NCBI GenBank assembly: GCA_051294375.1 | Contig: CM119267.1 | Span: 12,533,081 to 12,597,080 of the forward strand | Reading direction: 5' to 3' | Length of the DNA stretch: 64,000 nucleotides | From: Paraspadella gotoi | Lineage: Eukaryota > Animalia > Chaetognatha | Shown: positions 9,401 to 41,808 of the stretch, one piece after another | Layout: every line of letters starts with the position of its first letter | Numbering within the stretch: position 1 is the stretch's first letter | Translations under genes and position numbers: made by a program | Notes under the pieces: generated by a model | The model's input: only the letters and a program-made list of their open reading frames with translations | Databases searched by the model: none | Told to the model about the DNA's origin: nothing

Positions 9401-12400
9401 GGTTTTTGAGGACGGACTTGGTATTGCACTCCGATCTACAAATTACAAAGCGATAAATACGTAACAAATATTAAATAGGTTTGTAACTCTTGACGTGCAT
9501 AACTAGTTATGCGAATTTCTCATAATTTTTCGGCTCAGACTATTGAACGACGCAATCGTCCCAGTTCTTGACATTAACCCACCTGTCTTGCTCCTTCAAC
9601 CCAAACAGAATGTACATTTTGACTTTTCGATCTCCGTCGTTGACGAGAAATCTTTGATTCTCCATCATCAAGTGCTGCTGCAGATAGTGACCGTCGCGAA
9701 AAATCTGAAGGAAAACCGAAATGTCGTGAAAACATAAAGATATGGTTGTACATCTTTGAAGTTTATCTGCATCGAATGATAACCATGACAAAAATGAAGA
9801 CAAAAGTGAAAACAAAAATGAAAACAAAAACAAAAAAAGGTACCTGTAAATAATTTTCGGGCGGAGGTCGCATCATAGTGGCTATGACTGCGATGGCGCC
9901 GACCATCAAAACGATCGGAATCACGATGAGAACCCAGCGGAATTTACGGTGAGTCGCCATCTTGAAAATCGGACCTAAGCCCATATAAGATCATAAAATA
10001 AGAAGGAAAAAGAATACTACAGTGCCCAAGCTCTTTCAACAACAAACTAATATTGCAAATTCCGACAAGAAGTCAGACAAAAATTATATTCAACCAACCT
10101 TGCATAAATTCAACCACTTTTTGATTTATGTCGAAGTATTTTTTCTGAGCTTGGGCGCCATTCTGCTCCGTCACCGCGTTGCTGCGAGGAAAAATATGAA
10201 AAAAAAATTCTAAAAACAAATCGAGAACAAACGAGAAAGCGACTTACGTTTTAGTCGAGCAGCAGCAAAGGCAATGGAACTGCGAAGAAAAAAAGTTGTT
10301 AACAAAATCATGTTTTAAAAAAGAGAAGAGAATACCAATATCAACCTGAGAAAAGTATTTGTGATGCAAAATGACGGCGGCGGGCAAAAGGGTCAAGACC
10401 GACAAGTAGTTAATGACGATGACGCAAGCCGTGAAGACGCCGAAGGACTCGACCGACAACATCGGACATAAAGCCGACACGATGAAGGCCGCCACTGAAG
10501 TCAGAGTCGTCACCATCATCGACTTTCCGGCTCTGTGAAGATATCAAGTTTAAAGCCGAAGCAAGTCACACAGTTGCTTTATTATTACTGGTGCACCTCT
10601 GGTAGCACTCGGCGAGCCTGTCGGCCAAACTGTCGAACGACTTCTTCTCCAAATATTTCCACGTATCGATGAAGACAAAAATATCGTCTGCACCGATGCC
10701 GAGAGCCAAAAATAGCGCCAAAACTTGAAATACGCCGATGTATTTGTAGCCGAGAACGACATTATAGAACAGATTCGCTGATGGAGACACGGGAATGATT
10801 TAAGTTCGTCTGTTATTCATTTTTTCCAGACCATGGCCAAAGTTAAGTTGAATATCTGCGCCTAAAATCTCATTTATATCTCGGAGAACAAAGGAATCCG
10901 TTAAATTTCGTACTTGTTAGCTATGAAAACACTTTTGTGATATGTCGTCACCTTCAACGAAACTGAAGACTATGCCGAGAAGTCCCCAAGTGGTTATCCA
11001 CAGCGATCCCGTTTGAAAGTAGATAAAGACCAAAATAAAGGCGAGAGAAGCGAGGAGAAAGTACCAGTCTTTGAAGACCTGAGACGGGTAAAGCACGATA
11101 AAGATTACATGACAATCGTCGTTCAAATACGTAACTTTTGCATTCATTCCGCAAAACTCGCCTGCTTCATGGCTCCGTTAAAGTAAAACCAGTTTCCGCC
11201 TCCATAGTAAACCTGTGCGAAATTATGCAAATTTAGGGCGGAAGTATCATCAAATTTTTCTAGCAGCGTGATCTTTCGTTTTCAATGGCAACAATTTTCT
11301 TTAATTAACGATTAATTTATGTAATTGTATGTAAATAACAAGCGTCGCTCAAATCTCAAATCTTGAAATTTTTTGGGGGAAGTATTGTAGTTTTTTTAAA
11401 TTTTAAAAAATAAAATGGGAATTTTGAAGAGGTAAGAAGCTAAAATATCACAAATTAAGAATTAAGTAAAAAATATCAATCATCCCCCCTCGAATACCCC
11501 CCAAAAAGCAACGATCCCCACCTTCAGCCCCATGAATCCGTCCTCCACCAATCCTCCCAACATCTTCATCAACTCCCCGCGTATTCGATGGCCGCAGAAT
11601 CCTCGATCGTGCCCTCCCTGCCCGGCGCCACGACAGGCTCGCCCAGATCGAAGTAGAACCGCGTGACGTCGCTTCGAGCCACGCCCCTCGACGCGTCGAT
11701 CTCGTTATCGACGCCCAAGAAAATCTTGGCCGAGTCCTCGTCGGTCTCAAGAAAGTCGGAGAGGCCTGTGTGAGGGGACGAGGGATCGGCTTAGGTTCGT
11801 TTTCTTGCAAGATATTTCGTCTTTAAGGTTTTCTTTGGTCAACGGTTTTGAATTGATATACTCGGAAACAGATGAAGCGGGTTTGGTCAACTTAATATGG
11901 AGTCGGCTTCCGTTGGCTATTTTTTCCTTAATTCATCGTCAATTTGTCATAATTTAGTCTTACTGTGGCGCCTCACATCCATCATCGTTCAGCCAATTCA
12001 GGCTCAGAGGGGGAACACACCATCCGAGGCGTTGTGTTCGATCCACAGTCCTAACGACTTCACTCTGCGTTGGCAAAGCAAGACCGTACTAGGGTAACCA
12101 CGCCAGTGACAGGAGGCGTCACTGAGGGTCGGAAGACCCCAAAGCCAACAGTGAGATGCCCCATCCCAGTGGGCATCGCAGGCAACCCGGCTGTTGCCAT
12201 AAGTGGTGAGCCCTACTATCAAGCACGCAACCTTCTCAAAGTACACTGCGACAAATGCCTATACCCTGCCAACTTCGGGTACACTACGAAAAATGCCTAG
12301 GCCCCTGGGGTACGCTACGACAAACGCCTATGGCCCCTCAACTCATGCTCGCTGTCTCTCTCTCCCACGATGGTAACAATCTTGTCAGACACCTCTCCGG

Positions 12401-41574: not shown

Positions 41575-41808
41575 TGTGAAGAGACAGTAATTATTATTAT
41601 GTGTTAGTGACAGAACCGTTCAATATAAGCAGTCCCTGAGCTTCGGATCAAGCTGTAACACTGAGTTACAGGCGGGTTAAGCGCCCCGTCCCTCTTAACT
41701 GCCAGGCGACCACCGGGCTAGAACACCGGACCGTTGGGTTGGGAGGCGAATGACTTGCCTCCGGCACCAATGGCCGCTGATGAACGGTTGGTGGATTTTA
41801 GTCCACCA
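41575..41808 (-). mobile_element. Solo LTR-like unit with twister motif, inserted into an 18-bp satellite
   Basis: TG...CA termini, exact 4-bp TSD TACT, degenerate A/B boxes on the minus strand, twister core 41702-41629; partial copy at about 8007-8075. Confidence 0.75.
41629..41702 (-). ncRNA. Twister ribozyme motif, type P5
   Basis: Minus strand GCAGUU..GGG-ACGG-GGCGCU-UAA-CCC-GCC-[UGUAAC/GUUACA]-GCUUGA-UCCGAAGC-UCAGG-GACUGC; T1 CGG/CCG. Confidence 0.75.

Follow-up and report, generated by a model that had tools for sequence, protein, structure and literature searches.

What are the six short units that stand out as GC-rich islands in a stretch of the genome of the chaetognath Paraspadella gotoi, and do they carry ribozymes? 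The stretch, here called the window, comprises 64,000 nt (assembly GCA_051294375.1, contig CM119267.1, positions 12,533,081-12,597,080 of the forward strand; all coordinates below are positions in the window) and is otherwise microsatellite-rich, with an overall GC content of 36%. An earlier note on this DNA had described the units as a candidate new mobile RNA system, namely long terminal repeat (LTR) retrozymes with a twister ribozyme in place of the hammerhead. Our analysis supports this in part: the twister core is borne out and a retrozyme-like element is our best explanation as well, whereas the carrier is not a new class and matches the Helenus elements, or TRIMp3 (PMC10886601; here and below, statements on published systems refer to the covered parts of the sources cited). 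We read the units as the LTRs of high-copy, non-coding, Helenus-type miniature LTR retrotransposons, each intact LTR of which has a predicted type-P5 twister that would cut the transcript once per LTR. This would make them a likely animal LTR retrozyme, a reading to which we give a probability of roughly 0.6.

Six units and a miniature LTR element

All six units lie where the earlier note had placed them, and the end of the fifth that was missing there has now been located. They are given here with the parts of the two-LTR element and with their target site duplications (TSDs):

11964-12201, + strand: U1, a member of subfamily A1 and the 5' LTR of the two-LTR element, carrying a short 5' deletion; its 3' end is fixed in contigs of other copies
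12000-12011 and 12035-12045, + strand: A-box-like and B-box-like motifs of U1
12202-12437, + strand: internal region, non-coding, 236 bp, repeated in the genome
12204-12216, + strand: primer binding site (PBS), by eye matching 11/13 positions of the tRNA-Trp PBS given for Helenus-2_SyJa and Gypsy-32_NVi
12430-12437, + strand: weak tract resembling a polypurine tract (PPT), five purines followed by three pyrimidines
12438-12589, + strand: U1b, 3' LTR of the two-LTR element, twister deleted; 88% identical to U1 over aligned columns
15268-15524, + strand: U2, solo LTR, subfamily A2, exact 4-bp TSD (ACTA); ends fixed in contigs
23920-24184, - strand: U3, solo LTR, subfamily A1, exact 4-bp TSD (AGCC)
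25562-25825, + strand: U4, family B unit; TSD 3/4, or 3/6 if the end is 25823
28036-28289, - strand: U5, family B unit whose A and B boxes are the best of the set; TSD 4/4, or 6/6 if the end is 28038
41575-41808, - strand (sense): U6, a family B insertion into a 17-18-bp satellite; TSD 4/4 (TACT), or 6/6 if the end is 41577

Every unit starts with TG and has A/B-box-like motifs, a twister layout and a 3' stem-loop region, the last being weak in U6. The common layout proposed earlier holds throughout for the TG start and the twister, and less evenly for the tRNA-like boxes, which are clear in U2, U4 and U5, weak in U6, and imperfect at the B box in the A1 sequences (U1, U1b and U3). ARAGORN found no tRNA gene in the units, and the Rfam scans gave no tRNA match. 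Pairwise identity among U1, U1b and U3 is 84-88%, U2 is about 75% identical to U1 in its 3' half, and U4, U5 and U6 have only short stretches in common with each other or with the former units. The divergent subfamilies of the earlier note, at least four by its count, come to five in ours and form two groups: family A (U1-U3), ending in CCATA, and family B (U4-U6), ending in CTTCA with or without two further bases.

The case for an LTR element is made by family A. Contigs of four public sequencing runs were aligned to positions 11700-15800, and contig ends were taken from the best 24 of 1705 rows. In run X1 the summed contig depth was about 250 in the flanks and rose to about 1e6 in the A1 LTR, with 2.7e5 in the internal region and 6.8e5 in U2, which indicates that all three are highly repeated; it is not taken as copy number, the ratio to the flanks varying several-fold between runs. 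Among these best rows of run X1, contigs leave the element at fixed points, with 56 and 76 doing so behind 12201/12202 and 31 before 12438, while for U2 there are 56 before 15268 and 39 behind 15525. The flanks of the other copies are unrelated (agreement 0.43-0.44) and have no common tail, and among the listed contigs one each in runs X1, X2 and X5 joins the 3' end of the internal region to a twister-bearing LTR. At these contig-fixed ends the TSDs are exact for U2 and U3 (4/4 each) and match at 3/4 positions for the two-LTR element, the exact duplications being those the earlier note had reported. Its view that the units have fixed termini with 4-bp TSDs, and not SINE-like tails, is thereby upheld for family A.

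The two-LTR element spans 11964-12589, and a full copy would measure about 770 bp. The structure with both LTRs is known for A1 alone, there being no two-LTR copy of A2 in the window. The PBS was compared with the tRNA-Trp PBS in Fig. S2 of PMC10886601. Within the internal region, 12241-12331 consists of three imperfect direct repeats of 22-36 bp, parts of which are skipped by contigs of other copies. Two other classes of element were considered and rejected: a tRNA-derived short interspersed element (SINE) for family A, given the fixed 5' and 3' ends, the lack of a common tail and the 40-65 bp of element sequence upstream of the A box, and a DNA transposon, given that there are no terminal inverted repeats beyond TG/CA. 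Core-less short derivatives of the U6 and U5 families, with their ends kept, occur at about 8010-8085, 18315-18373 and 20577-20640, the last two within a local duplication. No RNA run was listed in the search of sequencing runs. Run X9, whose identity as RNA is only a guess, has numerous contigs from these families; since DNA or intronic copies may account for them, they are not counted as expression.

The predicted twister and its palindromic P1

The layout tested is that of a type-P5 twister opened at P5, in the order P2'-GA-PK2-P1-UAA-P2-PK1-(P3)-P4-L4-P4', where PK1 and PK2 are the two pseudoknots and helices are named as in PMC8501958. The following cores were located, those at 15392-15471 and 28109-28189 agreeing exactly, from P5 to P5, with the earlier note:

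12069-12149, + strand: U1 core, P2 and PK1 decayed; predicted cut after U 12095
15392-15471, + strand: U2 core, no defect in the catalytic residues or in either pseudoknot; predicted cut after U 15418
within U3, - strand: U3 twister, general-base G lost; predicted cut at U 24026
25697-25775, + strand: U4 core; predicted cut after U 25719
28109-28189, - strand: U5 core, intact; predicted cut at U 28163
41628-41703, - strand: U6 core, intact; predicted cut at U 41679

By the pair table, the full type-P5 order is present in all six units. The 3-bp PK2 has three out of three pairs in each of them, in four different sequences, and the 2-bp PK1 is intact in five and broken in U1. The UAA cut site with the general-acid A is found in 6/6 and the general-base G in 5/6, the exception being U3. 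P4 is fully paired in all units, P5 was found in five, and P2 is intact in U2, retains three pairs in U3-U6 (with a conserved one-base bulge in family B) and is broken in U1. The sequences of P3, P4 and P5 differ between subfamilies with their pairing kept, and across the five subfamilies the helices and the 3-bp pseudoknot covary. Furthermore, at the four broken positions of U1, more than 95% of the summed contig depth in all four runs has a fold-keeping letter (among the 40 of 90 rows listed).

Two further twister-like sequences lie outside the six units:

3184-3244, - strand: T7, a further type-P5 twister absent from the earlier note, without P3, PK1 altered on both sides, P2 bulged as in family B
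5765-5826, + strand: T8, a decayed inverted duplicate of T7 (92% over 133 bp)

In T7 both pseudoknots are paired, PK1 by non-GC pairs, and a weak match to the Rfam Twister-P5 model was obtained at 3192-3234 (25.8 bits, E 0.32, below the 37.6-bit cut-off). Neither LTR ends nor A/B boxes were recognised in the approximately 130 bp that T7 and T8 have in common.

A generic descriptor of the fold that permits a 3-nt P2 strand found four sites in the window (U2, U4, U5 and U6), compared to two in 60 windows shuffled block-wise by dinucleotide; it was designed after the units had been seen, and it missed the decayed U1 and U3 as well as T7 and T8. Of the two units held out, a model built from U1, U2, U3 and U6 recovered U5, at 20.3 bits and a rough E of 1.3e-4. 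P2-P5 are included in the folds predicted for U5 and U6. A pattern for the P3 of family A gave no match in metagenome contigs and none in viral contigs. In a screen of about 2,600 natural twisters, some 94% were active; flaws in P1, P2 and P4, bulges and an A-to-C change at the A.A pair were tolerated, and the pseudoknots and catalytic bases, whose general-acid A and general-base G roles we take from the same source, were the sensitive sites (PMC11662667). Judged by these tolerance rules, U2, U4, U5 and U6 are predicted to cleave. Structurally, the case is strong.

So what could be the role of the diminutive P1? Between PK2 and the UAA lie 8 nt in family A, or 6 nt in family B, which over their full length are self-complementary, P1 being a loop-less palindrome in five of the six lineages. 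Its central four bases form a Watson-Crick palindrome in four of the five subfamilies, which has a chance of 7.6e-5 if these are independent, a figure calculated post hoc. T7, looked at afterwards, has another, different, perfect 6-nt palindrome as its P1. An intramolecular hairpin gives selection no hold on pairing between its innermost bases, and P1 is therefore most simply read as forming between copies, which suggests a strand-swapped twister dimer that would join two LTRs. Hammerheads with weak stems are described as cleaving as dimers (PMC7761336, PMC7229834), and cleavage of twisters without P1 has been termed inefficient (PMC8501958). We found no report of dimeric twisters in the open-licence literature searched.

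Helenus elements, retrozymes and other twisters

Helenus elements (Kojima 2024, PMC10886601) are miniature retrotransposons with terminal repeats (TRIMs) that measure less than 1000 bp, carry tRNA-derived sequence within the LTRs and in animals have 4-bp TSDs. With its fixed ends, lack of a tail, 4-bp TSDs, repeated internal region and tRNA-Trp-like PBS, family A therefore fits this group, and the likeness extends to the non-coding nature and size below 1 kb, two LTRs with tRNA-like A/B boxes in each, a PBS complementary to a tRNA 3' end, the many solo LTRs and the inferred Gypsy helper. Helenus-2_SyJa and Helenus-2_SyUm agree with family A in the TGTGG start, in a tRNA head located in the 5' half and in the tRNA-Trp PBS. 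The differences are the weak PPT and TA terminus of family A and the possible 6-bp TSDs of family B.

Do other Helenus elements carry a ribozyme as well? In the covered text of PMC10886601, 'twister' and 'self-cleav' do not occur, and 'ribozyme' and 'hammerhead' occur in a reference title only. By eye, the Helenus consensus LTRs in the covered part of the supplement showed no twister. When the whole supplement was searched for motifs, three twister-loop words gave three matches, none in a twister context, and two PBS words gave no match. However, Helenus-2_SyJa-LTR and Helenus-2_SyUm-LTR from gall wasps (Data S1 of PMC10886601) have, by eye only, an unannotated layout of a type-III hammerhead directly 3' of the B box, comprising the core boxes, three stems, and loops I and II that are complementary over about 12 nt. 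As such, two ribozyme classes seem to fill the same slot of the LTR, suggesting that the slot needs self-cleavage and not one particular ribozyme. A recurring GC-rich, apparently structured motif, which may be a ribozyme or a packaging signal, was also seen in the internal regions of Helenus-3/-4_NVit, Helenus-1_CeFu, Helenus-2_TrSa, Helenus-2_MusRap and Helenus-1_PtePup, wasp families that are primed by tRNA-Arg.

Plant LTR retrozymes (Cervera et al. 2016, PMC4918200; PMC7761336) have a self-cleaving ribozyme in each LTR, which is the predicted state of an intact family A element, and like family A a non-coding centre, a PBS, 4-bp TSDs, solo LTRs and a Gypsy helper, the last being putative in our case. 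Theirs is a type-III hammerhead combined with a tRNA-Met PBS, whereas here it is a type-P5 twister with a Trp-like PBS, and Rfam found no hammerhead match in the units. Moreover, no tRNA-like promoter is described for them in these sources, and their circles are demonstrated and highly self-paired, while those of P. gotoi are predicted. By a strict definition the chaetognath elements are thus not plant-type retrozymes, lacking both the type-III hammerhead and the tRNA-Met PBS, and are predicted to work like them. Animal retrozymes, on the other hand, are described as being without LTRs, PBS and PPT (PMC7761336, PMC7229834), and a 2026 preprint keeps this split between plants and animals, with twister, TRIM and Helenus unmentioned in its covered parts (10.64898/2026.07.22.740005).

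Twisters have been linked to RTE-type elements without LTRs (PMC8501958, PMC7761336) and to viroid-like circles (10.1101/2022.07.19.500677). The Schistosoma twisters linked to Perere-3 (PMC8501958) share with ours the association with an animal retroelement, a weak or variable P1, and P3 stems like those of U5 and U6. They are of type P1, however, and occur once per element at the 5' end of an autonomous long interspersed element (LINE), with P1 made together with the target site, in contrast to the type-P5 twisters inside an LTR with a palindromic P1 found here. The minimal hammerheads of Penelope-like elements and amphibian retrozymes (PMC7761336, PMC7229834) offer a parallel for a stem that is too weak within one copy and is proposed to form between two; there it is helix III of a hammerhead in pseudo-LTRs or tandem repeats, and here P1 of a twister. 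Nothing closer was found in the covered parts of PMC6765202, PMC10085705 and PMC7936874, nor did we find a report of a twister in an LTR or TRIM, or of a ribozyme in Helenus, in the open-licence literature, the hits being mostly judged from titles and the starts of abstracts. The combination of a twister with a TRIM that has a tRNA-like promoter looks undescribed. PMC7761336 refers to unpublished work on type-III hammerheads of insects, and some of the finding may hence be known already.

If true, a twister-bearing TRIM with a tRNA-like promoter would break two limits, that of LTR retrozymes to plant hammerhead elements and that of animal retrozymes to elements without LTRs, PBS and PPT, and TRIMp3 and retrozymes, which were described separately, would become joined. 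It would also provide one of the few concrete biological roles for the twister, and a dimer-dependent twister would constitute a simple switch by which an RNA could sense that it contains two copies. Since these variants escape Rfam, counts of such ribozymes in repeat libraries of animals may be too low.

Proposed cycle, competing readings and neighbouring features

In the cycle that we propose for family A, RNA polymerase III would start at the tRNA-like boxes of the 5' LTR and then read through, because the sense strand is without a T4 stop (no run in 1748 bases, compared to 3.6 expected). The transcript would be cut once per LTR, probably by a strand-swapped pair of twisters, to give a unit RNA of about 500 nt (265 + 236) without terminal redundancy, which could be copied if the template were circular. 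Since such a unit lacks terminal redundancy, its circularisation is likely, and this step could be performed by a host ligase of the RtcB type, which circularises animal hammerhead retrozyme monomers in vitro (PMC7229834). A tRNA-Trp would then prime at the PBS, with a Gypsy-type element providing reverse transcriptase (RT) and integrase in trans, as has been inferred for animal Helenus (PMC10886601). Insertion would regenerate the two LTRs and the 4-bp TSD, and most copies would finish as solo LTRs. Taken as a whole, the reading that true LTR retrozymes exist in animals and are driven by RNA polymerase III, with an interchangeable ribozyme slot and strand-swapped dimer twisters that cut efficiently only with both LTRs in the transcript, resulting in a circle of about 500 nt copied by a Gypsy helper, is a tentative one, and we lean somewhat against all of it being correct at once.

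Several observations weigh against an animal LTR retrozyme. The earlier note had described an LTR-PBS-internal-LTR element; the structure stands, yet in this sole two-LTR copy of the window the 5' twister is decayed, the 3' twister is deleted and the PPT is weak, and as its LTRs are 12% apart the copy is old. Family A ends in TA instead of CA, most of the depth of subfamily A1 has a non-canonical letter of the B box at 12040, and folding in silico gives no self-pairing of the internal region (z +1.59), which sets it apart from the RNAs of plant retrozymes. Among the window's 125 open reading frames, inspection by eye revealed no autonomous Gypsy partner (eight were checked in Pfam). As for the ribozyme, one half of the refuting condition set in the earlier note, the lack of a twister match, came out against it: at E up to 1 the Rfam twister models matched no unit, and U1, U2 and U6 gave no match at E up to 10, likely because PK2 is non-canonical, P3 forms an insert and P1 is tiny. 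A stricter, first version of the descriptor found U2 alone of the six units, and the model built from U1, U2, U3 and U6 missed the held-out U4, as well as T7 and T8. Folding z-scores do not set the six cores apart (-2.05 to +0.28), and the minimum-energy fold of U2 is not a twister. Finally, the P1 of U4 pairs by wobbles alone, and P1 is dispensable in twisters according to PMC11662667, so dimerisation is not required in principle.

Do these reservations apply equally to family B? That it works like family A is something we infer, and its status as an LTR is less sure. The 4-bp TSD design of the earlier note is kept in family A; in family B, U5 and U6 fit it with 4/4 each, and fit a TG...CA element with an exact 6-bp TSD equally (6/6 each), depending on whether they end two bases after the CA or at the CA itself, so that the TSD may be 4 or 6 bp. 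U4-U6 could thus belong to a separate tRNA-headed twister element that is not a Gypsy-served LTR, with 6-bp duplications made by another integrase or in a tailless SINE-like manner, which would leave the conclusions on family A untouched. The perfect 6-bp duplications speak for this, as does the window itself, which holds no two-LTR copy of family B, and no internal region, PBS or second LTR beside these units, their ends being read from window copies. Conversely, family B has TG...CA ends without a tail and the same order of parts as family A, U4 agrees better with 4 bp (3/4 versus 3/6), and two related family B fragments have one of the two post-CA bases in common. On balance we consider this reading of family B unlikely.

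A second alternative accepts the element and its active twister, and replaces the circle by a linear intermediate: the 5' ribozyme would often stay uncut and the 3' one would make the 3' end, so that the RNA would retain the repeat from the polymerase III start to the cut site and be copied like an ordinary LTR element. Without a T4 terminator on the sense strand another maker of the 3' end is needed, the internal region is not rod-like, and Cassandra TRIMs use linear polymerase III transcripts with short terminal repeats (PMC10886601). However, the same ribozyme is present in both LTRs and a palindromic P1 would favour their simultaneous cutting, while circles are the product of plant and animal retrozymes in which each unit has one ribozyme (PMC7761336, PMC7229834). 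We therefore regard a linear intermediate as rather improbable.

The twister could also be a passenger that entered a TRIM LTR, at least once, as part of a tRNA-headed SINE, which may have been served by an RTE-type LINE, the ribozyme being no longer needed for transposition of the LTR type. Kojima indeed proposes a repeated origin of Helenus through SINE insertion into LTRs (PMC10886601), the P3 stems of U5 and U6 resemble by eye those of the Perere-3-linked twisters, families A and B are alike in little beyond the twister, and core-less short copies exist (U1b and the three fragments given above). What makes this quite improbable to us is that A1 and A2, which have common LTR ends, show compensatory differences in P1, P2, P5 and PK2, which implies selection after capture, and that the fold is kept in the majority of genomic copies. 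Very improbable, lastly, is a conserved twister-like fold that does not cleave and serves, for example, as a packaging or RT-recognition signal: the failure of the Rfam models on the six units, the nearly absent P1 and the bulged 3-bp P2 of family B would agree with it, but the five subfamilies retain both pseudoknots as well as the catalytic A and G, such flaws are tolerated among natural twisters, of which about 94% of those assayed cleave (PMC11662667), and the relative T7 does weakly match the Rfam P5 model.

With an animal LTR retrozyme remaining our preferred reading, the surroundings of the units can be described briefly. Exons of a gene of the Patched/sterol-sensing-domain type lie at 10244-12910 (- strand), and a C-type lectin domain at 8593-9120 (- strand); these account for the two of eight window frames that gave matches in the Pfam scan, and fit an animal host. 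The two-LTR element lies antisense in an intron of this host gene, next to an exon at 12704-12910 with AG/GT ends. Decayed coding-like fragments at 4600-5310 (- strand) and 42812-43065 resemble a Penelope-type GIY-YIG endonuclease, the scanned frame having no Pfam match. An inverted duplication of about 1.8 kb (32429-34327 and 42378-44196) flanks a GA-rich satellite block, and a near-perfect 93-bp hairpin is present at 54159-54356.

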